Shown here piece by piece: positions 21,168-44,744 of a DNA stretch of 48,653 nt. The stretch comes from Candidatus Hermodarchaeota archaeon (GTDB lineage Archaea > Asgardarchaeota > Hermodarchaeia > Hermodarchaeales > Hermodarchaeaceae): positions 1-48,653 of the forward strand of contig JAEOUH010000020.1 of assembly GCA_016839365.1 (NCBI GenBank). The letters are read 5' to 3'. The translations under genes and the position numbers were made by a program. A model generated the notes under the pieces. The model made no database searches, was not told the DNA's origin, and saw only the letters and a list, made by a program, of their open reading frames with translations. Positions within the stretch are counted from its first letter, which is position 1. Each line of letters begins with the position of its first letter.

Positions 21168-22913
21168 CTAGGCTTTAGGCTTGTACTTGTATTTTCCCAC
21201 GAAGCTTTCTCGACTCATCATGGTCGGCAATGCCCAGGTAACTACCGTACCATTCATCGTGTCACGGAGAGCAGGTTCAGGTGTTCCTGATGGAACACCA
21301 ACATATTCGAAGTTTGGGGGAATTAAATCTTGCAGCTCTGGATCCTGTAAACTTGTTTCTCCATCATTGACAAAGGTAACTGTAACTAGCAGTTCACCTG
21401 CTTCGGTCGTTGGAGCGACCGTTCTAGTCTTGCGGAGTTTTCGAACCACCGATCGAACCTTGATAAGAGGTGCCATTGATTCGGGTACCTCAGTAGTAGC
21501 CTTGGGTCCTGGGGGATAGGTGTTGGCTTCGATTGTTACGGGAAGTCGGTGCTCTTGGTTTGGCTTCGGTGTTCGGGCAATTGAGATGTAGTTGACGGTC
21601 ACTGTGTCACCAGGTTTAATTGGTGAGTGATTTTCTATCAGGTCATGAAGCAGAATCTGGAGAGTATGGGGTAACTTTGGATCGCGGTCTTTGGGACGAA
21701 TATCGACCTTGAGGGTACGAGTCACTGGTTTGTCGGCAATCCGCACTCGAATTTGGGTGTTATCTGGAGGCTCGAAGCCAGGTGGAAGGGAGTCGATGAA
21801 TGTGATTTCGTCACAGTCTATGGTTCCTGTGTTTCTTCCTTGTAGAGTGATGGCTACAGGTGCAGGCTCCCATGCCAGTAACTCAAGCGGTTCAACTCGT
21901 TTCTTTCCTTCAATACGAAGCACCGGAAATATATTCTCAGCTTTTTCAATGGTTCCGATAATTTCTTGGTGTAAGGGTGCCTCGACGGTGGAGAGGGCAA
22001 TGACATCAAATTCGGGTTGCTCAGCGCGAACTTCAAGTTCATGTCCCCAGACTTCGCCTGGGTCCAGGCGGAGATCAGGGGATCCTTCATATAATAACTC
22101 GTTTTCTGGAGCCGTCAAAACCACTTGAACCCGTTTAAGGCGAAGAGGAAATTCACTGGTGTTGGTCAGCGTAGCTTTACATCGCCAAAATCCCACTCTC
22201 AAAGGATTCTCCTCCTTCTCGACGCTCACTTCAGTTTCTGTTGACCCATGGAGTGTAGGATTAAGTGTGCTCCGAACGACATCAGCTATCCGGTAGGTGG
22301 CACGTACTTTTCCACCCGATTTTGGCTCCGTATCTTCGGCTGTTATAGTTGCGCGAATCCGTTGAATGGCAACACCTTCCGAAGGTAATTCTTTGATTTG
22401 CCACACGATTTGACCAGCTTTCGAATCGTACTCCGCCTTGCCTATTTGTGACTGTTGAATCTTAATATCCCGAAAAATTGGGGGAATCTCTTTGGTCACT
22501 ACAATGTCATTAATTCTTGCTCCTGAATGGTTTCGAAGGTTCAGGCTGATTTCAACGGGCATCTTATACTCATACACTAACGCGTTATTCACACCCACCC
22601 GTTCATAAAAGGTGTCGAGTGATTCTGAGAGGAGCAGCATGGGCGATTCAATTTCTTTGACGATAAAGTCTTTCTCCCATTCGGTCATCGGATTTAGTCG
22701 TCCGATATCAAGTGTATCTGCTCCAAGAGTAGTGCGATTTTGTCGATTGAGTTCCAGTTCTGCATCCCACACCGCGTGTTTCCGAGAATTGTTCTTCACA
22801 ATCACTTGGCCGCGGGGATCGAATCGAGAAATGGTGTTATCCGCCGTTAATCGAGTATGTTCATGTTCCTTAATGGAGATAGTTAACCCTGCTGGAGTCT
22901 GTGCCGAAGCCAA
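21168..22913 (-). CDS. Cytosolic multi-beta-sandwich protein with N-terminal adaptin mu-homology (MHD)-like domain
   Basis: ISIKEHEHTRL...RGQVIVKN and IVVTKEIPP...GKAEYDSKAGQIVWQIKELP resemble AP-mu/delta-COP strands; later Ig-like repeats (N.G...D.LPP.F); no signal peptide or TM. Confidence 0.6.
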   Translation of the reverse strand: MASAQTPAGLTISIKEHEHTRLTADNTISRFDPRGQVIVKNNSRKHAVWDAELELNRQNRTTLGADTLDIGRLNPMTEWEKDFIVKEIESPMLLLSESLDTFYERVGVNNALVYEYKMPVEISLNLRNHSGARINDIVVTKEIPPIFRDIKIQQSQIGKAEYDSKAGQIVWQIKELPSEGVAIQRIRATITAEDTEPKSGGKVRATYRIADVVRSTLNPTLHGSTETEVSVEKEENPLRVGFWRCKATLTNTSEFPLRLKRVQVVLTAPENELLYEGSPDLRLDPGEVWGHELEVRAEQPEFDVIALSTVEAPLHQEIIGTIEKAENIFPVLRIEGKKRVEPLELLAWEPAPVAITLQGRNTGTIDCDEITFIDSLPPGFEPPDNTQIRVRIADKPVTRTLKVDIRPKDRDPKLPHTLQILLHDLIENHSPIKPGDTVTVNYISIARTPKPNQEHRLPVTIEANTYPPGPKATTEVPESMAPLIKVRSVVRKLRKTRTVAPTTEAGELLVTVTFVNDGETSLQDPELQDLIPPNFEYVGVPSGTPEPALRDTMNGTVVTWALPTMMSRESFVGKYKYKPKA

Positions 22914-23516: not shown

Positions 23517-26500
23517 GTGCGGAAGCGATATTACGTGCCATCAAATCTGTCCTCATGGATGGGCTCATCAGAACCAAATCCCAAAACAAAGGAACAGTCG
23601 AAGCCAAAGAAGAATCGGCTCTCACTATTAACCCAGATCATTGCCCAAAGCAAAGATCAGCCCATTCGCCCGTCCGAATATCCCCATACCCCAGAGTCGG
23701 GACCTCCAGGTGTTCTAATCAACATTGACTATCAAGGAAGCGTAGGGGCTGCCAAACTCAAACTCTATGATATTACTAAAAGCCAAATCTATGAGTGGGT
23801 GGATAACACCGGACATCAACCATATTGCCTAACGGATTTATCCCAAGAGGATCTCTCACAACAAAATGATGTTGTTGGCCACTCGGGATTCCTGAAATTC
23901 GAGGAGGGGCTCAAATATAATTTATTACACGATTCAGAGGAACAATACACCATCATCATTGCAAAAGATCCTTTAGCAATTGGTGGACGCCCTGACTCCA
24001 TCCGAGAAAAAATTGGAAGAGACCATGCCTGGGAGGCAGACATCCGGTACACGCAATGCTATACAATGGACCGAGCCCTGACACCAGGCCTTCTGTATCA
24101 GGTTCAAAAGGGTCGACTAGTTTCCGTTCCTCAGGAATTTTCGACTGAAGACGCCACCAAGATTCGTGGATTATTCAAAGACGACAAGGAGCTCTCTAAG
24201 CTCATTGAAGAGTATCTTCCCCTTTTTCTGACTCCTGCCTCGTCGTTACCTCGACTTGCTATTGATATCGAAGTAGAATCGGAATTCATCGATCGAATAC
24301 CTGATCCGGAGCAAGCGCCACAACCAATCATTTCCGTAGCAGTCGTGGATGATACAGGTGTTGGTAGAGTATTACTGCTGGAGCAAGGCTCGCAGGGACG
24401 TGAAGCAAGGAATCTTCCCGACACCGTGACCGTCGAGAAATTTGATAATGAAAAATCCCTCGTTGAAACGGTCTTTCGAATTCTATGGCGTACCCCAATT
24501 CTATTGACCTTCAATGGGGATAACTTTGACCTTCGATACCTTGTCAATCGAGCAAAGAAACTCGGTATCCCCCCTGCTGACAATCCTGTTCGCTTACGAG
24601 GTGGCTTCCGCGGCAATCCCGAAGCAGAACTCGAATATGGCGTCCACATCGACCTCTATCGATTCCTTCATAATCGGTCCATTCAAATCTATGCCTTTCG
24701 GAATCGGTACAGCGAAGTTCGCCTTGAAACGGTCAGCCAAGCCCTCCTCGGAGAAGGAAAGTTACCACTCCCCGACGAGATTAATAAAATCCCTGCCCAC
24801 TTACTCGCTCAATACAATTGGCAAGATGCAAGCCTAACCATGCGCCTCTCAACGTTTGATGATGACCTCATCATGAGCCTCATCCTCCTGCTCATGCGAA
24901 TATCCCATCAAGGCATGCACGACCTCACCCGCACCGCCGTATCCAACTGGATTCGCAGCCTCCTCTACTACGCCCACCGACAACGCAACTACCTCATCCC
25001 ACGCCAAGACGAAATCGCAAGCTTGAAAGGCGAAGCCGTCACCGAAGCCATCATCAAAGGCAAAAAATACATGGGCGCCATCGTCGTCGAACCCAAAGAA
25101 GGCGTCCACTTCAATGTCACCCTTGTTGACTTTGCCTCACTCTATCCCAGTATCATGAAAGCATACAACCTCAGCTACGAAACTGTACGCTGCGATCATC
25201 CTGAATGCAAAGGCAATCTGGTTCCTGGCACACCCCATTGGGTTTGCACTCGCAGGCAAGGAATTACCAGTCTTATCATTGGGCTAATACGTGATGTTCG
25301 TGTTGAGCACTTCAAATTAAGAGCAAAGGACAAAACACTCCCCCCTGAACAAAGAAGCTGGTTCAGCGTAGTCGAGCAAGCACTCAAAGTATTTTTGAAT
25401 GCGCAGTATGGCGTGCTAGGCGCCAGTCATTTTCCCTTATATTGTGCCCCTGCAGCTGAATGTTATTCAGATGATACTGAGATTTTGACAGAAAATGGAT
25501 GGAAATTGTTTAAGGATTTACTTCCGAATGAAAAAGTTGCCACACTAGGAAAACGTGGTGAATTAGTTTATGAGCAACCGCAAAAGCATATTGCAGAATA
25601 CTATTCAGGAACTATGTTTTCTCAAGTCAGTAGTAACATCGATTTGTTGGTAACACCTAACCATAGAATGTATATTGGATGGCGGGGGAAAAATAATTAC
25701 AAGCAGGTTATCAGATGGGGCTTTAGAACTCCTTTAGATATGCCACGATATGTGAAATATAAAAGAAATGCTGAATGGACGGGCAAGGAGCAAGAGTGGT
25801 TTATTCTTCCTCCTGTGATGAAAAAGAAACTTGCCGGAATAAAAATTAATACGCGAGATAGAAAGGGGCGAATTGTTGAATCTGAACATCAATTCGAGGA
25901 AGTTGTAGAAAAACCAATCAGAATCTCGATGGATGATTGGCTAAGGTTTTTTGGCATCTGGCTAGCCGAGGGTTGTTCTACTGGAGGAAATTCGCAAGAA
26001 TACAAAGTTATAATCACGCAATCAAATGTTGAAAAAAGAGCGAAAATCAAGAAATGGTTAGCGAGGCTGCCATTTGATTTTAAGGATTACGGAAAAAATC
26101 TGACAGTCCATAATAAACAACTATATTCATATCTTGAACAATTTCATCAGAGTTATGATAAGTATATTCCAAGAGATTTGCTAAATCTGTCTCCACGACA
26201 ATTACGAATTCTATTCGAATCCATGATGCTCGGAGATGGTTGGAGAGGGAGATGCTATGGCACTGCGTCAAAAGCCTTGGCTGATAACTTTCAAGAACTT
26301 GTACTAAAAATGGGATATGCCTCTACAATTACTAATTCTAAAAACTTCAATAGTATTTACATTTCATATCAAATGCTACAACCAATGCAGAATAAGGGGA
26401 TCGATCATAGATCCTGGGTTGAGTATGATGGAATGGTCTATTGTGTCGATGTTAAGAATCATCTTGTTTATGTTAGACGAAATGGGAAAGCATGCTGGTC

Positions 26501-27248
26501 GGGTAATAGTGTAACAGCTCTTGGTCGTTACGCAATTACCCAGACAATCGAAAAGGCTGAGGAGATAGGAGCTACGGTGATTTATGGAGATACAGATAGC
26601 CTGTTTTTAGATAATCCCACCAAGGATCAGTTGAGGCAACTCATCGATTATAGTGAAAAGAAATTACGAGTGGAGTTGGACATTGAAAAGGAGTACCGGT
26701 TTGTTGCATTGTCTAGTCGAAAGAAGAATTATTTGGGTGTGTCAAAGGACGGTCAAGTTGACATTAAGGGCTTGACGGGTAAGAAACGGAATACGCCTCT
26801 ATTTTTACAGGAGGCATTTATGGAGATGATAGATATCCTAAGTCAGGTTCGTGACCCTGATGGTTTCACCTCTGCGAAAAAACGGATCCTTCAACTTGCC
26901 CGGGATAAGTTAACGATGCTGGATCGCCGAGAATTTGATGTGGAAGATCTAGCAATTCGAGTCCAACTAACGAAGAATCTCAGCGCCTACACCAAAACTA
27001 CTCCCCAACATGTTAAGGCAGCTACGCAGCTCCAAAAAGCCGGAAAAGAAGTGACAGCTGGAGACATCATCGCTTTTGTCAAAACGACCGACGGCGTGAA
27101 GCCTGTTGAGCAGGCTACCGTCCAAGATATTGATGTATCAAAATACAAAGACCTGGTGAAGAGTACCTTTGAACAGGTCCTTGATGCCTTAGGCATTGAA
27201 TGGTTGGATACTATAGGAATGCGTAGGCTGGATACCTTTTTCGGCTAA
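23517..27248 (+). CDS. polB1: Family B DNA polymerase (archaeal PolB1/Dpo1 type) containing an intein
   Basis: Exo motifs AIDIEV, FNGDNFD, YNWQD; pol motifs DFASLYPS, KVFLNAQYG, YGDTDS, KKNYLG; B1-type C.HPEC...HWVC insert; C-terminal PIP-like RRLDTFF. Confidence 0.93.
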   Translation: MRKRYYVPSNLSSWMGSSEPNPKTKEQSKPKKNRLSLLTQIIAQSKDQPIRPSEYPHTPESGPPGVLINIDYQGSVGAAKLKLYDITKSQIYEWVDNTGHQPYCLTDLSQEDLSQQNDVVGHSGFLKFEEGLKYNLLHDSEEQYTIIIAKDPLAIGGRPDSIREKIGRDHAWEADIRYTQCYTMDRALTPGLLYQVQKGRLVSVPQEFSTEDATKIRGLFKDDKELSKLIEEYLPLFLTPASSLPRLAIDIEVESEFIDRIPDPEQAPQPIISVAVVDDTGVGRVLLLEQGSQGREARNLPDTVTVEKFDNEKSLVETVFRILWRTPILLTFNGDNFDLRYLVNRAKKLGIPPADNPVRLRGGFRGNPEAELEYGVHIDLYRFLHNRSIQIYAFRNRYSEVRLETVSQALLGEGKLPLPDEINKIPAHLLAQYNWQDASLTMRLSTFDDDLIMSLILLLMRISHQGMHDLTRTAVSNWIRSLLYYAHRQRNYLIPRQDEIASLKGEAVTEAIIKGKKYMGAIVVEPKEGVHFNVTLVDFASLYPSIMKAYNLSYETVRCDHPECKGNLVPGTPHWVCTRRQGITSLIIGLIRDVRVEHFKLRAKDKTLPPEQRSWFSVVEQALKVFLNAQYGVLGASHFPLYCAPAAECYSDDTEILTENGWKLFKDLLPNEKVATLGKRGELVYEQPQKHIAEYYSGTMFSQVSSNIDLLVTPNHRMYIGWRGKNNYKQVIRWGFRTPLDMPRYVKYKRNAEWTGKEQEWFILPPVMKKKLAGIKINTRDRKGRIVESEHQFEEVVEKPIRISMDDWLRFFGIWLAEGCSTGGNSQEYKVIITQSNVEKRAKIKKWLARLPFDFKDYGKNLTVHNKQLYSYLEQFHQSYDKYIPRDLLNLSPRQLRILFESMMLGDGWRGRCYGTASKALADNFQELVLKMGYASTITNSKNFNSIYISYQMLQPMQNKGIDHRSWVEYDGMVYCVDVKNHLVYVRRNGKACWSGNSVTALGRYAITQTIEKAEEIGATVIYGDTDSLFLDNPTKDQLRQLIDYSEKKLRVELDIEKEYRFVALSSRKKNYLGVSKDGQVDIKGLTGKKRNTPLFLQEAFMEMIDILSQVRDPDGFTSAKKRILQLARDKLTMLDRREFDVEDLAIRVQLTKNLSAYTKTTPQHVKAATQLQKAGKEVTAGDIIAFVKTTDGVKPVEQATVQDIDVSKYKDLVKSTFEQVLDALGIEWLDTIGMRRLDTFFG
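25461..26507 (+). mobile_element. Intein (349 aa) with LAGLIDADG homing endonuclease in PolB1
   Basis: Starts CYSDDTEILTENGW, block B LLVTPNH, FFGIWLAEG and MMLGDG endonuclease blocks, ends VRRNGKACWSGN then Ser+1; splits AAE|SVTALGR; visibly AT-richer than flanks. Confidence 0.95.
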
Positions 27249-36566: not shown

Positions 36567-37325
36567 ATGTCCAAACTCCGGTGCCCTGAGTGCCTTGTTC
36601 AGTTGGAATCCCAAGACGCCGTCTGCCCCCAGTGTGGATATCGAATTCGGACGGAGCAGTTCGAACGCATCCTTCCTTTTATGAAACGTCCCGAACAACA
36701 ATGGGAAAGTCGACTAACTTTATGGCAACGACTCTGGGGCGTGCTTCGCTTTCCTTCCATTGCTTTTTGGGATATCGCACACGACACAGATACACGCGGA
36801 CCAGCTTTGATTTTCTTGGGAAATCTTGCAGCCATCTCGCTTTGGTATGTTGCAATGGCGCTACACGTTGTTGATGCTGGCCCTCTGCTCTTGTACGGGT
36901 TTGTTGGAGTATTTGCAATTCTGTCGTTGTTATACCTACTCTTGAACCTAGTGTATTTCGGAATCATGCATGCGATAATCAACTATTCTGGTCGTGAGGG
37001 GGATTTCTCGAAAACCTTTCTCATGGGGCAGTACGCGCTGTTTCCGTTTCTTCTTACGAATCTTCTCTCATTTGGGCTTCTCTCCGTCGGTCTTCCTCCC
37101 ACTACCTGGGCAAACATGACGGTTTTGTACCTTCATCCCATATGGCTAGCAGTCTACGCACTTGCCAGCATTGCAGTCTTATGGGGCGCTCTGATTTTAT
37201 CACTAGGAATCCGTGAAAGCTATCGGATGCCTTCAATGACTGCCCTAATCATCACTATGAGTGTTACTCTTTTTATCGTCGTAGTGGCGATCTTAGTTCG
37301 GTTGACCGTTATTCCGATTATTTAA
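36567..37325 (+). CDS. Zinc-ribbon plus Yip1-domain membrane protein
   Basis: CPEC...CPQCG, then WGVLRFPSIAFWDI and ~5 TM helices, GxF.KT...YA..P. Confidence 0.75.
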   Translation: MSKLRCPECLVQLESQDAVCPQCGYRIRTEQFERILPFMKRPEQQWESRLTLWQRLWGVLRFPSIAFWDIAHDTDTRGPALIFLGNLAAISLWYVAMALHVVDAGPLLLYGFVGVFAILSLLYLLLNLVYFGIMHAIINYSGREGDFSKTFLMGQYALFPFLLTNLLSFGLLSVGLPPTTWANMTVLYLHPIWLAVYALASIAVLWGALILSLGIRESYRMPSMTALIITMSVTLFIVVVAILVRLTVIPII

Positions 37326-38361
37326 AGACAGCCAACAGTTTCAATGGTTGTGCTAGTGCAGCATCAATGATAAAAAGCGGTTCTTTGTCTTTCATCCGAA
37401 GTTTTCCAAAGACCTGTTCATCCTCTAAGACTTTCCCACGCAAGATGATTTTGGGATCTTGCATTCCGAAGGTCATAATCAATCTGTTTTTCAATTCTGC
37501 CACAGTTTCTTTCCGACCTACTGCGTAGATTTCACCTTCCAGGCGGAATCGGTCACTACATAAAAAGCAATTGGGGTTTCGGGCGAGTTTCAGAATTGTG
37601 AATTGCTGATGAAGGCTGTCATAGAAGAGATAATTGTCAAGGGGAGATCCCACCCCTAGAAGTTGTTTCAAAACTTCTTGAAACTGAATTCCTGCTATTA
37701 TGGTGGCGACGCTGAGGAGGGCGGGGAACTTGGGAAGTGGTTCTTCCACTTTCCTTTGTTTTCCTGGAGGCGTACAAGCTTTTTGTAAGCGTTCAGCAGG
37801 CACCAATGGTTGGCATTCCAGGCAGGCAGTGTCAAAAGGAACAACACGTTGAACATTCCCCCACCAACCATACATACCCCCATGAATGAAGACTTTATTC
37901 TTTTGGACGCAAAGTGAGTTCAACCAACGTCGGGCCTCAAAGGTATCAAGCCCATCAACAATCAGGTCCGCTTCCTCATAGATGGAGTGACGCACATCTT
38001 GGATTGCGCAGTTTAAGGCAAGTACATGTACATCTGGGTTCATTTCACGAAGCCGTTGGCCCGCAACGACAGCTTTTGCTTTGCCTACATCTTCATCATG
38101 GTACAAGAATTGGCGACTTAGATTCGATAATTCGATCGTATCAAAGTCAATTATTACAACCTTGCCAATTCCAGTGAGAACCAAATCCACAGCAATGATT
38201 GTGCCTAAGGCTCCCATACCTGCTACGACAACCGTTGACTGTGAGAGTTTTTCCTGATTCCAATCGTCTAGGAGTAATTGACGGGCATACCTCTCAGTGC
38301 CATGATACACGGGGACCTTTTTTTTCTGTTCGACAACCTGCTCATCCATGGCTAATTTCAT
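37318..38361 (-). CDS. Ubiquitin-activating enzyme E1 (ThiF/UBA) with C-terminal ubiquitin-fold domain
   Basis: RYARQ, GMGALG, DFDTIELSNLSRQFL, DGLD...RRWLN, CLEC, catalytic ACT, NPNCFLC; ATGA overlap with the E2 stop (alternative start 38349). Confidence 0.92.
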   Translation of the reverse strand: MKLAMDEQVVEQKKKVPVYHGTERYARQLLLDDWNQEKLSQSTVVVAGMGALGTIIAVDLVLTGIGKVVIIDFDTIELSNLSRQFLYHDEDVGKAKAVVAGQRLREMNPDVHVLALNCAIQDVRHSIYEEADLIVDGLDTFEARRWLNSLCVQKNKVFIHGGMYGWWGNVQRVVPFDTACLECQPLVPAERLQKACTPPGKQRKVEEPLPKFPALLSVATIIAGIQFQEVLKQLLGVGSPLDNYLFYDSLHQQFTILKLARNPNCFLCSDRFRLEGEIYAVGRKETVAELKNRLIMTFGMQDPKIILRGKVLEDEQVFGKLRMKDKEPLFIIDAALAQPLKLLAVFK

Positions 38362-38819
38362 CCTCGTTGTATCTGATCCCAACCAGCAAAGCGTTTCACC
38401 CAATCTTTAGCTGTGCGCTCAAAGGCTATTGGGTTCTGCTTTGCTTCCCGTGATGCCCGTTGATTCAAAGGATCGTCAGGATTGGGGAAATTTAAAAGAT
38501 TACGAAGCGTTTCCACGACACCGGTAAGTGACATGCTGGGGAGCCAATCTTTTCCTAAAATACCCACACAGACTCGACTTCTATAGATATTGGGATGCCA
38601 TATCTGAGTGATAAATTGTACCTGTGGGGGTTCATAAGGGAAGGATCGGGGAACATTGATTTGTACAACAAAGACACCATTATCATAAATACCAGTGCCC
38701 AGAATAAATCCACGCCATCGTCGGAGGTCGCCTTGGATAGGCTGGAACGACGGTTCCTCGGTTTCCATATTCTTAGCTTCAAGGGCTAATCTTGCCCAAT
38801 AATCCTCTTCTGATAACAT
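38358..38819 (-). CDS. Ubiquitin-conjugating enzyme E2
   Basis: W.G.I.G...Y..G.F, FPYEPPQVQF, WHPNI....VC (catalytic Cys), DW.P, PNPDDPLN. Confidence 0.95.
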   Translation of the reverse strand: MLSEEDYWARLALEAKNMETEEPSFQPIQGDLRRWRGFILGTGIYDNGVFVVQINVPRSFPYEPPQVQFITQIWHPNIYRSRVCVGILGKDWLPSMSLTGVVETLRNLLNFPNPDDPLNQRASREAKQNPIAFERTAKDWVKRFAGWDQIQRG

Positions 38820-39017: not shown

Positions 39018-39254
39018 CTAGCCGCCCTCTGTCCTCGTAATGAGGTACAGCTTATCGTGGGGTGTGATGCCAACACTCTTGATTGTCTGTTCATCGGTTA
39101 GTTGGGCTCCACGGTATGCGAGGATAACGATGTTTGGCGGTATCCGGCGCATTTGAGCCACACGGTTCCGAATCTCCCCAACCGTAGTGTTTGGTTCGAC
39201 TTCAAGAGCAATGGGGTCACTGCCACCAATCGCTGGTACAACTTCTATTCGCAT
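39018..39254 (-). CDS. Ubiquitin (eukaryote-like), encoded in mature form ending Gly-Gly
   Basis: I.LEVEP.TTV..I, IPP, L.Y.G.QL.D..TI, C-terminal RTEGG-stop; 78 aa. Confidence 0.93.
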   Translation of the reverse strand: MRIEVVPAIGGSDPIALEVEPNTTVGEIRNRVAQMRRIPPNIVILAYRGAQLTDEQTIKSVGITPHDKLYLITRTEGG

Positions 39255-39267
39255 TTTTAACCACCGA

Positions 39268-39519
39268 CTATTTTCTAACCGGTTTCAACCTTCGTATGTT
39301 AATGCGGTGCCGACAGATGGGACAAGAGCCTTTCATCTTCACCCATTCTGCTAGATGTCGATAATGGGCAGGATTCCCGCAATGCGGGCAATGGACCATT
39401 TGTTCACCATCACGGATTTGGAGCCGACAGACACAACACATGTCAGTGGACTTGGTCCAATCCCATCGGCCAATTTCTTTCACCGATGAAATAACGAACC
39501 GTCCCGCTGCTTGTGTCAT
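39268..39519 (-). CDS. Small RING-type E3 ligase, Rbx1/Apc11-like (83 aa from ATG 39519; ORF open to 39663)
   Basis: CCVC...CPHCGNPAHYRH..EW....CPICR; N-terminal RFVISS.....WDW strand. Confidence 0.85.
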   Translation of the reverse strand: MTQAAGRFVISSVKEIGRWDWTKSTDMCCVCRLQIRDGEQMVHCPHCGNPAHYRHLAEWVKMKGSCPICRHRINIRRLKPVRK

Positions 39520-39720: not shown

Positions 39721-40257
39721 GTGTCCGCTGATCCACCCAAATATGCGATAGAAATTGAAGCCATCAAAACGCCAAAGGGGTTAGTCCCTACTGTCGAGTC
39801 CCTGAAGCGTATTGTGAAAGGTTTGAACTTACTCGATTCTGACCTTGGACGGATGAATCTAAAGATGGAGGCGAATATTCGAGCCCTCCTCCGGGAGGTC
39901 AAAACATTGCAGAAGCTGGTAGCTGATGATACCATCGCGTCGGAGTCTTCGGTTGAACGGTTGGGCGTATTGGTCGACCGGTTCGAGGACTTGGAGAAGA
40001 CCATGGATAAAGTCGCGAAAAGCAAACCCGAATCAGGTTCCAAGGAATTACGGGAACTGCAGAAGGAACTTGTTCCCACCTTGACTCAGGCCGTGCAGCG
40101 ACTTGAGGAAATGGTCACTATCTTTGAAACGCGGTTTGAGGAATTTCTCCGCGAACTTCAGGGAAATATCTTGATTACCGTCCGACAAGCCGTTAAAGCG
40201 GAAACGCCTAAAAAGAATGTGCTGTCCAAGAAGAAGACTAAGAGTAGTTCAACATAA
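39721..40257 (+). CDS. Coiled-coil hypothetical protein leading the ESCRT-I/II operon
   Basis: 178 aa heptad-rich with Lys-rich tail; co-oriented with vps23. Confidence 0.7.
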   Translation: MSADPPKYAIEIEAIKTPKGLVPTVESLKRIVKGLNLLDSDLGRMNLKMEANIRALLREVKTLQKLVADDTIASESSVERLGVLVDRFEDLEKTMDKVAKSKPESGSKELRELQKELVPTLTQAVQRLEEMVTIFETRFEEFLRELQGNILITVRQAVKAETPKKNVLSKKKTKSSST

Positions 40258-40340
40258 CTTACTTTGGCAGGCTCTAGTTGCCAAAGATTAAATGTCCGCT
40301 CTCACAGGAAGAATTCAAACAGATATCATGGTGTGTTTCA

Positions 40341-41096
40341 ATGGCACAGGCTATGAGAAGTCAAACAGAATTGGCGATTGCACGCGAAGCCCAGTTAATG
40401 TACCGTCGTGCACCCACCTTTGCGCCCGTTGAGTCCAATCTCCGTCGTTGGCGTGGGAAGATTAAGGGTGGACCACGGGGTAAAGACGAGTTTCTCGTCG
40501 AGATCATTGTCCCTGCAAACTTTCCAGCTCAACCACCAGTTGCTCGAATGCTTGCTCCAACAAAACATCCCCGAGTCGACTCTGAGTCTGGAGCTATCCA
40601 TCTTCGAATAGTTACTCAATGGCAACCTCATTATCACGTCTACCAGGTGGTTAATAGCATCAAGGGTCTTTTCGCCCGCGAACCTCCTGTGCCAGATGCA
40701 ACCCGAGAAGTTCCAAAGGTTACAATGCCTCCCGAAGAGGAAGTCCTCCAACAACGCTTTCAGCAGCTTGAACGCGATGTCTCAAGCCTTACTAAGAAGG
40801 TACAGGACCGTGATGAACAAATCGCCCGAATGTCTGCTCAAATCGACACGGGGTCGTTAACTACTGGCGAAGTCACTGACGAAGAAGAACTCGATGCACT
40901 GATTCTTCCAACGGATGCAAAAGAAAGGGAGAAGCTTGAGCTCGAGAGTGAAAAACTAGCCATCTCTGACCTTTTACAGAATCTTGAGCAGAAGTTTGAT
41001 GCTGCAGAAATTACCTCCACTGAATATACTAAGTTGTACAAACGATACAAGAAACGACTCTACCAAATCGACAAAGCGCTTGAAAAATATCAATAA
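40341..41096 (+). CDS. vps23: Vps23/TSG101-like ESCRT-I subunit (UEV + coiled-coil + steadiness box)
   Basis: UBC fold lacking Cys (KHPRVD..SGAIHL), F..EPPV, coiled-coil stalk, AISDLL..L...F....I....Y.K.Y steadiness-box helices. Confidence 0.88.
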   Translation: MAQAMRSQTELAIAREAQLMYRRAPTFAPVESNLRRWRGKIKGGPRGKDEFLVEIIVPANFPAQPPVARMLAPTKHPRVDSESGAIHLRIVTQWQPHYHVYQVVNSIKGLFAREPPVPDATREVPKVTMPPEEEVLQQRFQQLERDVSSLTKKVQDRDEQIARMSAQIDTGSLTTGEVTDEEELDALILPTDAKEREKLELESEKLAISDLLQNLEQKFDAAEITSTEYTKLYKRYKKRLYQIDKALEKYQ

Positions 41097-41120: not shown

Positions 41121-41768
41121 ATGGCAGTGCGTGAAAAGAAACGACAAAAACCGGCTAAGGTTGTTGAATTGGAGGCAGAACTCTATGGCACGATAGCAAC
41201 TCTTGACAGTATTTCTGAGAAGTTCGATGAGGGTGATCTTCAACCCGCAATCTACAAACGTCAATTCAAATCCCTTGTCCGAGATACCATCAAGACACGT
41301 CAAATACTTGAGGCAGAGGGTGAAAGTTGGGACCAGTTCGTCGAGGATGAAAAGATTGTCGAACGGTTTCCCACTGCAGTCGAGAAACTCCAACTTGAAC
41401 AGCGTGCTCCTGAAGGAGAAGAAACTGTTAAACTAGCTCCCCAGACTTCTGCTCGAATGGCGGCGAAAACAGCAGATATTGTCTCGGATTTAATTACACT
41501 TATTGATATCGCCAAACTCGGTGACGTAGCAAAAATGAGCCTTATTGTACCACTCTTGGATGATGCTATCATTCTGCTGACAAAGTATCCTAACTTCCCA
41601 CCCCAGTATTGGATTCTGGTAGCGCTCAAAGATTGGCGGAACCAGCTGCAAGACCGCGATCCTCATGAAACCCTTTCACCTGAAGAGGCTAAACAGTTGG
41701 AGTTCCAAGCGGTCCGATGGCTGAATGATTTCAAGCGACGGCTCCGAGAGATGGCGGTTGATGAATAG
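41121..41768 (+). CDS. vps28: Vps28-like ESCRT-I subunit
   Basis: AELYGTIATLD.I...F..GD....Y......L N-domain, FP.A..KL, C-terminal four-helix bundle LITLID..KL...W...L...LS.EE.KQL.F. Confidence 0.88.
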   Translation: MAVREKKRQKPAKVVELEAELYGTIATLDSISEKFDEGDLQPAIYKRQFKSLVRDTIKTRQILEAEGESWDQFVEDEKIVERFPTAVEKLQLEQRAPEGEETVKLAPQTSARMAAKTADIVSDLITLIDIAKLGDVAKMSLIVPLLDDAIILLTKYPNFPPQYWILVALKDWRNQLQDRDPHETLSPEEAKQLEFQAVRWLNDFKRRLREMAVDE

Positions 41769-41787: not shown

Positions 41788-42081
41788 ATGGTACACCCAA
41801 TGCGTTCCTTTGCAGAAATGCGCGAACGGTTGGTGAACGCCATCAATAAAGCGAATCTGCGCATCAACGCTGAATACATCCTAGAAGATTTAGACGTTGT
41901 CGCTGCCTTTGCGGAAGCGATGCTCGGTCCCGATCACCCGGTCACCCAAGAAACCCAGGAATGGTACGAATACTTCTGGGCAAAATATGGTAACAATCTT
42001 ACCCAACATGTGGAGGAATTAGAAGCGCGACGATTCGCAATGCGAGCTGAAACCTGGCTCAACTATATTCGGCAAATATGA
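41788..42081 (+). CDS. Small helical protein resembling a stand-alone Vps28 C-terminal domain
   Basis: Aligns by eye with the C-terminal domain of the adjacent Vps28 (A(D/E)....L(I/V)..I(D/N).A.L; I...LD; P......W; EA(K/R).....A..WLN). Confidence 0.6.
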   Translation: MVHPMRSFAEMRERLVNAINKANLRINAEYILEDLDVVAAFAEAMLGPDHPVTQETQEWYEYFWAKYGNNLTQHVEELEARRFAMRAETWLNYIRQI

Positions 42082-42094
42082 GGAGGAACATCAG

Positions 42095-42829
42095 ATGGGA
42101 CTTTGGGAAATCGAAAAGCAAATGGAAATGGATGCCGCCTACAAGAAGAAACGTGTTGAGCTCATGCTCAAAGAACTCGAACTCATGCTCCAAACAATTT
42201 CAGAACTACGCGATAAAGCAGACGCCTTCGAACAAACCTATGGGGAAGTCATCGAAGTCTCCCCAGAATATAGTGATAAGGCCGCTGCCATCGCCCACGA
42301 ACTCGGTATCACTATGCCGGGTATTCCATTCTCTGAAGACATGAAAGAAAAACCAGGTCTAATGGAACGGCTCACAGGTCGTGGTCGATTCTATGACGAA
42401 CTCGGTCTCCAAATCCTAGATATCGCCAAGCGACGACGGGAGGCTACAGGAGGCATCATGACACTGGCGGAAATTGTTCTCATCGTTAATAAACAAAGAC
42501 GTTCAAGTGTCTCCCAAGTCGATGTCGCCAAAGCCATCCAAAACCTTGCGAATGCCAAACTCATTCCAGGCATCCGAAAACTACCATCAGGGATTCGCAT
42601 TGTCGAACTGGTCCCACGAGAACTCACCAACGACCAGGTTGCCGTCCTCTCCCTCGCTAGTCGGTCCGGCTACACCACTCTGGAAGAAGTTATGACCCAA
42701 ACCAACTGGGCTCAAGAACGGGCCGATGCAGCCCTCAAAAGCCTTGAATCTGTTGGAGCTGCAAAAATCGATGAGTCCTTTGTCCATGGAAAACGGTACT
42801 TCTTTCCTGGACTCAATCCAACGGAATAA
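42095..42829 (+). CDS. vps22: Vps22/Snf8 (EAP30) ESCRT-II subunit
   Basis: MGL N-terminus, FYDELGLQI.DI....RE.TGGIM.L.E, S..DV.KAI..L, VP.EL..DQ..VL, W..ERA..AL..L...G...ID, YFFPG. Confidence 0.9.
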   Translation: MGLWEIEKQMEMDAAYKKKRVELMLKELELMLQTISELRDKADAFEQTYGEVIEVSPEYSDKAAAIAHELGITMPGIPFSEDMKEKPGLMERLTGRGRFYDELGLQILDIAKRRREATGGIMTLAEIVLIVNKQRRSSVSQVDVAKAIQNLANAKLIPGIRKLPSGIRIVELVPRELTNDQVAVLSLASRSGYTTLEEVMTQTNWAQERADAALKSLESVGAAKIDESFVHGKRYFFPGLNPTE

Positions 42830-42847: not shown

Positions 42848-43576
42848 TTAGACGAGAACTTCGACCACTTCACGTTCTCGGTCCAACCATTTTGCCTGTT
42901 TACGCTCAACCAGGCGTTCTAAGATAATGCGTAACTCGGATTTAGGTAAGCTAGCCAAATCTTTTCGATATTCCTTCAGTTTAAAGAGCGTAAAGGTGGT
43001 TCGTCCAGTTTTCAACGCCCATTGACGAATCTCGTTCGCCCATTCATCATCCGTCTTCCAGGTAATCCGGACAATCCCTTCTGCCTCGTCAATCCATCGT
43101 CCAAGCTCTTCTTTCACAAGCACGCCAAGGATAATCTTCACGGCCTTTATCCGGTCTGGGCGGATGTCATTGAAGGGATCCAACATGACCAGGGTGCGCG
43201 TCGAAACAATGTGTAACAGCATTTCACGGCAATAATCGACGGTGAACCCAGCCCATTCTGCACCCCATTGTTCGATATCAGATTCGGAGGTGGGAATGAC
43301 AAACATAAACCCGTACCGACCGCGTTTCGCAATCCATACAAATCGTTGACCCAGCTTTTCAACCACTTGCTGAGCCAGTTGTTCAAGCTGTTTTTCTTCC
43401 TCTTCGGTAACTGGCATGACCAGAACAGCCGTCTCGTCTTCTTGTTCTAGGCTTTTCATGTGTTCACGTGTCTTCTTGAGAAGGTCCAACCAATCTTCTT
43501 CTGTGAGCTCCGTATCTGCACGAAGATCATCTTTCTCCTTCTCTTTCACACGTTCCCGGGGCTTTTCCTTCGACAC
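42848..43576 (-). CDS. vps25: Vps25-like ESCRT-II subunit with charged N-terminal extension
   Basis: QW..EW..F..DYCR, I.WKT.DEWA.EI.QWA..TG....TLF.L, IL..LV....A winged helices; start probably GTG 43576. Confidence 0.8.
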   Translation of the reverse strand: MSKEKPRERVKEKEKDDLRADTELTEEDWLDLLKKTREHMKSLEQEDETAVLVMPVTEEEEKQLEQLAQQVVEKLGQRFVWIAKRGRYGFMFVIPTSESDIEQWGAEWAGFTVDYCREMLLHIVSTRTLVMLDPFNDIRPDRIKAVKIILGVLVKEELGRWIDEAEGIVRITWKTDDEWANEIRQWALKTGRTTFTLFKLKEYRKDLASLPKSELRIILERLVERKQAKWLDREREVVEVLV

Positions 43577-43586
43577 GTTTGTTCCC

Positions 43587-44744
43587 CTATGAACCATGGG
43601 TGTTATCCCATTCAATATATCGCGCTTGCTCTTCAGGTGACACGACCGATCGGATGTTTTGCAAAGCCTCAAGGAAATCTTGCAGATTTACCGCCCTGGC
43701 CATGACTTCTTTATCGCGAATGGCACCTGATGCATCTAATTCACGAATGGGTTGCAGGGACGCCTCTCGGCAAATGAGTGCGATATCTGAGCCCGCGTAT
43801 CCATCAGTTTTTTCACCGAGGAAGTTAAAGTCCACATCCGGCGCCAAATCAATGCCCTTGGTATGAATCTCGAAGATCCGCACCCGGGCCTCAAATTCCG
43901 GAATCGGCACCAAAATTCGTCGCTCAAACCGCCGACGAAACGCCGCATCCAGATCCCATGGACGATTCGTAGCACCTAACACGACGATATGATCATCCTT
44001 CTTGCTCTTCATCCCATCCATCTCAATTAAGAACTGTGTTTTCAACCGCCGCTCACCGCCCACCTGATCCGCACCACGTTCCGCAGTCAGCGCATCGACT
44101 TCGTCCATAAACACAATCGCTGGCTGCTCTTTTCGGGCTGACATGAAGAGATTTTTTACTAGCCGCTCAGATTCACCCAGCCACTTCGAAACAAGAGACG
44201 CTGCATCTGCGTTGAAGAAAGTACAACCCGCTTCATTTGCCACCGCTTTGGCGATTAGGGTCTTTCCACAGCCCGGTGGACCGAAGATCAACACGCCTTT
44301 CCACGGGCGCCTAGCCCCCGTAAACAAGTCAGGCCGTAATAACGGTAAGATGACGGATTCGCGGAGCGCTTGTTTTGCTTCCTCAAGGTTCGCCACGTCC
44401 TCCCACTTGACATCAGGTTTCTCTTTGATAATCATGCTATCGATGTCTTCTTGCAGTTCCTTCTCATCCTGATCTTCAATCTCCACTCCCTCAAAGTCAG
44501 GGGCTGGTCCCCCCGCAGGGATCCTTGCACTCCTCAAAGTCTTCGCACGCGCCACATATTGATCAGCGCGCTCAAGGGCGATTCGACGGAGTTGTGGATT
44601 CTTGGATACTTTCATGACCCGCACGAGGATATCAGCGGCTTCAATGTACTTGGACATCGCCGCAGAGCGCTTCCCCTGCTGGTCTAAGACTAGGGCTTCA
44701 TTGGCTTTTGCTTCGGCAAGCTGAAACATCGCTGAGCTGGTCAA
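43587..44744 (-). CDS. vps4: Vps4 AAA+ ATPase (MIT + AAA)
   Basis: MIT (A...D.QG....A...Y...Y..RA..L), EKPDVKWEDVANLE.AK.AL.E.VILP, PWKGVL.FGPPGCGKT, LVSKWLGESE, DEVD, ATNRPWDLD.AFRRRFE. Confidence 0.95.
   Translation of the reverse strand: MTSSAMFQLAEAKANEALVLDQQGKRSAAMSKYIEAADILVRVMKVSKNPQLRRIALERADQYVARAKTLRSARIPAGGPAPDFEGVEIEDQDEKELQEDIDSMIIKEKPDVKWEDVANLEEAKQALRESVILPLLRPDLFTGARRPWKGVLIFGPPGCGKTLIAKAVANEAGCTFFNADAASLVSKWLGESERLVKNLFMSARKEQPAIVFMDEVDALTAERGADQVGGERRLKTQFLIEMDGMKSKKDDHIVVLGATNRPWDLDAAFRRRFERRILVPIPEFEARVRIFEIHTKGIDLAPDVDFNFLGEKTDGYAGSDIALICREASLQPIRELDASGAIRDKEVMARAVNLQDFLEALQNIRSVVSPEEQARYIEWDNTHGS

Follow-up and report, generated by a model that had tools for sequence, protein, structure and literature searches.

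The question raised by this locus is whether a RING protein of an archaeon docks by a short strand in front of its RING, as Rbx1 docks on a cullin, and if it does, what it docks on. Cullin-RING ligases and the APC/C are held to have arisen in eukaryotes and to lack homologues in prokaryotes (PMC3195147). The window, by which we mean the whole stretch of 48,653 nucleotides that was analysed (contig JAEOUH010000020.1 of a Candidatus Hermodarchaeota archaeon), encodes an 83-aa RING protein that the initial annotation had taken for a close prokaryotic relative of Rbx1 and Apc11, which would imply that the genome encodes a cullin-like scaffold at some other place. Our analysis shows that the protein is an already-known small Asgard RING E3 of a published system (Lu et al. 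2023, bioRxiv 10.1101/2023.07.25.550441) and that it falls outside the Rbx1/Apc11 family. The docking partner of its N-terminal arm is probably the product of the adjacent gene, asCOG005522, rather than a cullin.

The RING gene and its cluster

The 83-aa ORF is a genuine gene whose start Met is common to close homologues, and the segment quoted in the initial annotation was recovered in it as residues 6-35, encoded on the minus strand. The gene heads a RING-ubiquitin-E2-E1 run and lies head-to-head with a 178-aa gene, which is followed downstream by UEV-Vps23, Vps28 and Vps22, with Vps25 and Vps4 converging from the right. The features are as follows.

39268..39519, minus strand: small RING E3 (srfp type), 83 aa; ORF with ATG start, Pfam, conservation and model
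39457..39501, minus strand: conserved N-terminal arm R7-W21, putatively for docking, which the monomer model shows extended and unpaired; conservation and model
39721..40257, plus strand: asCOG005522, with N-terminal strand, TPxG hairpin and long coiled coil; proposed arm partner and first in the ESCRT-I/II run
39018..39254, minus strand: ubiquitin, C-terminal GG
38358..38819, minus strand: E2 (UQ_con; HPN motif, catalytic Cys)
37318..38403, minus strand: E1 (ThiF and C-terminal ubiquitin-fold domain)
40278..41096, plus strand: UEV-Vps23, published as a substrate of this RING family and as weakly bound by it
41121..41768, plus strand: Vps28
42095..42829, plus strand: Vps22/36 (EAP30)
42848..43672, minus strand: Vps25
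43587..44744, minus strand: Vps4

Since the nearest relatives are labelled Hermodarchaeota or Promethearchaeota, the locus is the Asgard ubiquitin-ESCRT cluster, which has been reported for Hermod-, Odin-, Baldr- and Helarchaeia as well as Wukongarchaeia (bioRxiv 10.1101/2023.07.25.550441; PMC9192718). The 178-aa gene was identified as asCOG005522 because WEU39991.1 is the RING of Odin and the accession named by Lu et al. is WEU39992.1. A 97-aa ORF between Vps28 and Vps22 (41788-42081, plus strand) has no Pfam match and is kept in Hermodarchaeota loci, and a zinc-ribbon and Yip1 gene (36567-37325, plus strand) converges on E1; in Odin, Baldr and another family, too, it adjoins the cluster. Farther off in the window are a 581-aa protein weakly matching the mu subunit of adaptor complexes (21168-22913, minus strand), a homologue of which adjoins asCOG005522 in Jordarchaeia (L025, L031, L055), and a 1243-aa family B DNA polymerase (23517-27248, plus strand) with a weak LAGLIDADG match at residues 913-948 that is probably an intein. 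One family (L034-L036, L058) has a RING fused to a small-GTPase-like domain, placed between the arm-bearing RING and asCOG005522.

The RING core

The zinc ligands of the cross-brace RING, conserved among 41 homologues, are C28, C31, C44, C47, H52, H55, C66 and C69; they form a C4H2C2 pattern of eight conserved ligands only, with an Asn where RING-H2 domains have the fourth ligand. V30 and W59 are at the E2-contact positions and R70 is the linchpin. The best Pfam matches were zf-RING_2 (2e-6) and Prok-RING_1 (9e-6), and neither zf-rbx1 nor zf-ANAPC11 matched at E<=1 in this search, so that generic RING profiles lead, an outcome which the initial annotation itself had named as speaking against it. 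In relatives of the protein the latter two profiles gave a few matches, all under the cut-off and over the RING core only. In the monomer model the RING has a pLDDT >90 and the N-terminus is extended without secondary structure. What characterizes srfp and the RING E3s of Asgard operons is found here as well, namely a small stand-alone RING with eight zinc ligands, ubiquitin, E2 and E1 encoded together with it, and V30, W59 and R70. Stimulation of ubiquitin transfer by the RING has been shown for homologues of Helarchaeia (bioRxiv 10.1101/2023.07.25.550441) and Caldiarchaeum (PMC5654768). The reading of the Hermodarchaeota protein as a minimal RING E3 is supported.

Likeness to Rbx1, Rbx2 and Apc11

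Residues 7-37 align with residues 21-51 of human RBX1, and as the two stretches are of equal length the alignment is ungapped. Of the positions matched in the initial annotation the RF and W.W alignment stands, but D26 and R32, like the exact spacing from Trp to Cys, are lineage-specific and not conserved, the linker varying from 1 to 7 residues. When residues 5-37 were used as the query against the PDB, 24 sequences were retrieved, all of them Rbx1 or Rbx2 and ungapped, with a best E of 0.06; without residues 33-37 the single query no longer retrieved Rbx1 or Rbx2, and thus the single-sequence match leans on lineage-specific residues. The full profile covers Rbx1 over positions 5-71 at E 2e-4, most other RINGs aligning from about position 23, and generic RING-H2 domains outscore Rbx1 by far on this profile (3e-9). 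With Foldseek, Rbx1, Rbx2 and Apc11 were aligned over about 70-100 columns compared to 50-66 for most other structures, and the PDB structures that match the full length of the model are mostly these three. Arm profiles at the family level, both those that included the first CxxC and those that did not, failed to retrieve Rbx1, Rbx2 or Apc11 from the PDB and Pfam at E<=10.

An 11-mer of RBX2 anchored upstream of the RING scored 10.7 bits on the Asgard arm profile, a score that none of 123 segments preceding the RING in larger archaeal RING proteins attained and that has a random P of about 2e-4 per RING family. Almost all of this score comes from the two Trp of WxW, and it is borderline after allowing for hundreds of RING families. 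The likeness of the arm to Rbx1 is suggestive but not proven, and the odds of homology between the arm and the strand of Rbx1 and Apc11 are about even. The close relationship of the whole protein that the initial annotation had drawn is not supported, because generic RING-H2 domains score far better, the family arm profiles miss Rbx1, Rbx2 and Apc11, and the zinc pattern differs.

Search for a cullin

Profile searches run without a positive control found no Cullin (PF00888) or Cullin_Nedd8 (PF10557) over the cut-off in 121 Asgard genomes, and likewise no Cullin, Cullin_Nedd8 or ANAPC2 (PF08672) in the 84%-complete genome from which the window comes. The cullin-like scaffold that the initial annotation had implied was not recovered, and the searches for cullin domains gave three sub-threshold matches only. 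That asCOG005522 is itself a mini-cullin was considered because of a likeness in its strand-turn-helix arrangement, which comparison did not bear out. Pfam gave no cullin match to its 178 aa, its motif profile retrieved no cullin, and a fold search found generic coiled coils only (Z<=6.6). The first 100 residues of the model are a strand, a hairpin and one long helix, and not the alpha/beta, helical bundle and winged helix of cullin-homology architecture.

Conservation and forms of the arm

Profile searches found the arm pattern RF-I--V--IG-W-W kept across 15 Asgard family groups, and arm-bearing RINGs are found in Odin, Baldr, Hel, Wukong, Atabey, Freya/Jord and Heimdall-labelled genomes, among others. 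In the 41 homologues W19 never varies and conservation is 90% or more at G17 and W21, so the W.W strand, whose loss in homologues would have spoken against the initial annotation, is in fact retained. In the monomer model the arm is unpaired, and it probably needs a partner. The strand-binding partner that had been implied survives in part: the arm is conserved and unpaired in the model and there is a candidate in asCOG005522, but this candidate has no detectable similarity to cullins.

In long RING forms, such as those at L045, L049-L052, L067-L068 and L075 and those of Wukong and Heimdall-labelled genomes, the arm strand is present in 2-3 tandem copies joined by low-complexity linkers that vary, and the upstream copies score about 10 bits compared to about -6 when shuffled. 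Several other long RINGs in which the alignment reaches upstream were rejected as arm-bearers since no real arm is present. In seven families, sampled by 3-60 or by single genomes and with an arm-only profile that is insensitive, neither an arm-bearing RING nor asCOG005522 was found convincingly.

The neighbouring gene asCOG005522

The conserved portion of asCOG005522 is its first 35 residues, which comprise an alternating hydrophobic strand, the TPxG hairpin and the start of the coiled coil. In the monomer model this N-terminal strand is unpaired and is followed by the hairpin and a long helix. The gene is directly next to the RING in 11 of the 15 families with arm-bearing RINGs and one gene off in a twelfth; for comparison, ubiquitin is adjacent in 11 of these families and UEV-Vps23 is near in 8. 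At L049-L052 the RING and asCOG005522 stay paired with no ubiquitin, E1, E2 or ESCRT gene near. From a profile search six divergent RINGs with the arm were picked while their gene neighbours were still unseen, and the partner motif adjoins five of them, including one E1-RING-partner run and one 316-aa multi-domain fusion; no partner motif was found beside armless RINGs at 13 loci. In Jordarchaeia a second arm-bearing RING lies head-to-head with a partner motif fused to an AAA ATPase that precedes an SMC gene, in all six genomes; partner and RING were duplicated together there, and this duplicate is one evolutionary event and not six. In two of the families the RING and asCOG005522 are both present but unlinked, and in one, represented by a single 80%-complete genome, asCOG005522 was not found. 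Njordarchaeales and two other families keep asCOG005522 without this RING, and from this it follows that the partner has another role.

When the RING was co-folded with two copies of the partner, the ipSAE was 0.44 compared to 0.00 for the best control, which lends weak support to the pair; no interface was returned, so that the score speaks for the two proteins and not for the arm in particular. Of the solved pairs 58 of 80, and of the mismatched pairs 2 of 110, attained the mark, but at <=0.60 only 7 of the 80 and both of the mismatched pairs did so. The co-folding runs agree in at least 94% of contacts and the pLDDT of the partner is at least 75.

Other arrangements of these genes were also seen. 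In Njordarchaeales and related genomes (L060-L063, L074, L076, L078, L079) asCOG005522 belongs to a conserved operon, where it comes directly after a gene of the ThiF family, and no RING is near. At L093:3358-7574 (G038, Freyarchaeum) and L096-L100, which cover all six of the Jordarchaeia genomes sampled, there is a second cluster, E2-E1-RING-RING-arm-RING, head-to-head with the partner-motif-AAA ATPase and SMC, and a Helarchaeota-labelled family (L094) has the motif-AAA and SMC genes with no adjacent RING. The 316-aa protein (L108:2109-3395, P0054) has a long N-terminal part with a faint UFL1 match and then the arm and the RING; it is followed by a 103-aa partner-motif gene, and a membrane-anchored AAA protein is head-to-head. 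A PEPCK match to the partner motif at L095 was set aside as chance.

A proposed docking mechanism and its alternatives

The reading that we prefer, to which we give a probability of roughly 0.55, is a two-part E3 in which the RING acts on E2~Ub and the arm strand pairs with asCOG005522 as the scaffold or adaptor that positions the ligase. The RING would bind E2~Ub and activate transfer, as shown for homologues, and the arm, a beta-strand without a fold of its own, would pair with the hairpin of asCOG005522 and the strand that is free at its N-terminus; asCOG005522 may be a small oligomeric scaffold or adaptor. Here the ligase would thereby be placed at ESCRT-I, UEV-Vps23 being the published substrate, and in Jordarchaeia at the AAA-SMC machine through the fused copy of the partner motif. 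The principle would be that of Rbx1-cullin strand docking but with a non-cullin partner, and the tandem strand copies look as expected for multivalent docking. For this reading speak also the conserved arm, the conserved unpaired strand of the partner, the adjacency of the two genes in most families and beside the divergent RINGs, the Jordarchaeia duplicate and, weakly, the co-folding score. Against it, the co-folding returned no interface, the two genes are unlinked in two families, the partner was not found in one and is kept without this RING in three, one of the six divergent test RINGs has no partner motif adjoining, and the synteny of the RING and asCOG005522 may be inherited rather than functional, the genomes not being independent. 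Published data stand against it too, in which SPR ties the arm to UEV binding (bioRxiv 10.1101/2023.07.25.550441) and ubiquitylation in vitro worked without asCOG005522 (bioRxiv 10.1101/2023.07.25.550441; PMC5654768).

The published view takes the arm for a loop by which the UEV of Vps23 is recognized as substrate, and asCOG005522 would then be an ESCRT-I stalk subunit or a bystander. The KD by SPR was 2.6e-4 M for the full-length protein and 8.1e-3 M without residues 1-19, Vps23 was ubiquitylated at K201 (bioRxiv 10.1101/2023.07.25.550441), and in many lineages asCOG005522 is the first gene before UEV-Vps23. This affinity is, however, very weak, the arm persists at loci and in lineages without UEV-Vps23 near where asCOG005522 is still adjacent, and the Jordarchaeia duplicate and the repeated strands are left unexplained; we regard this view as unlikely. 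It is rather improbable that the arm binds asCOG005522 as a ubiquitylation substrate, or as an inhibitor, and not as a scaffold for other substrates. The same synteny and co-folding data apply to such binding and coiled-coil lysines are readily modified by Caldiarchaeum srfp (PMC5654768), but the occurrence of the motif on different bodies, a plain coil and an AAA ATPase, suits an adaptor equally well. We give little credence to self-assembly of the arm, by which short forms would oligomerise through their strands and long forms would build the same sheet in one chain. Many RING E3s dimerise and the long forms do carry 2-3 copies of the strand, but the variable low-complexity linkers between the repeats do not fit and the persistent partner gene would have no explanation. 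It is very improbable that the protein is a true orthologue of Rbx1/Apc11 whose cullin-like scaffold is encoded at another place in the genome, for although the ungapped RBX1 match, the retrieval of Rbx1/2 only by residues 5-37, the full-length structural alignments and the incompleteness of the genome speak for it, the lack of any cullin over the cut-off in the 121 genomes, the family profiles that miss Rbx1, the zinc pattern and the higher scores of generic RING-H2 domains all stand against it.

Comparison with known systems

The protein shares with the published Asgard ubiquitin-ESCRT RING E3 the same cluster, the conserved N-terminal region and the neighbour asCOG005522 (bioRxiv 10.1101/2023.07.25.550441; PMC9192718). 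Lu et al. had already seen this conserved region, but unlike here it was modelled as a loop and assigned to weak UEV binding, asCOG005522 was left uncharacterised and Rbx1 is absent from their account (bioRxiv 10.1101/2023.07.25.550441); our literature search found no published comparison of the Asgard arm with Rbx1 or Apc11. The srfp of Caldiarchaeum subterraneum is likewise a small RING in an operon with ubiquitin, E1 and E2, and its I30, W58 and R69, which were tested and are needed for activity, correspond to V30, W59 and R70, but an ESCRT link or a partner is not described there (PMC5654768). The protein, a known Asgard E3, probably has an undescribed docking partner. If the archaeal RING does dock on a partner by a strand, the published Asgard cascade was reconstituted minus one subunit, a function can be given to asCOG005522, and two small proteins will suffice to test how scaffolded RING ligases arose; if it does not, the known operon merely has one more ordinary member in this protein.

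With Rbx1, Rbx2 and Apc11 the protein has in common the minimal architecture of arm plus RING, with RF and WxW in register and 7 residues before the first Cys. The RING-H2 core of Rbx1 carries an insertion with a third zinc site, whereas the Hermodarchaeota RING is C4H2C2 without it, and the proposed partner is a strand, hairpin and coiled coil and not a cullin. Any descent of Rbx1 and Apc11 from an Asgard arm-bearing RING is one that we infer. As a tentative and on balance doubtful extension, the Asgard protein may be the ancestor of Rbx1 and Apc11, forming with asCOG005522 a pre-cullin modular E3 in which the RING is plugged by its strand into a coiled-coil adaptor that can be exchanged, mostly at ESCRT-I and in Jordarchaeia at the AAA-SMC machine, and in which the docking site would later have been taken over by the C-terminal domain of a cullin.
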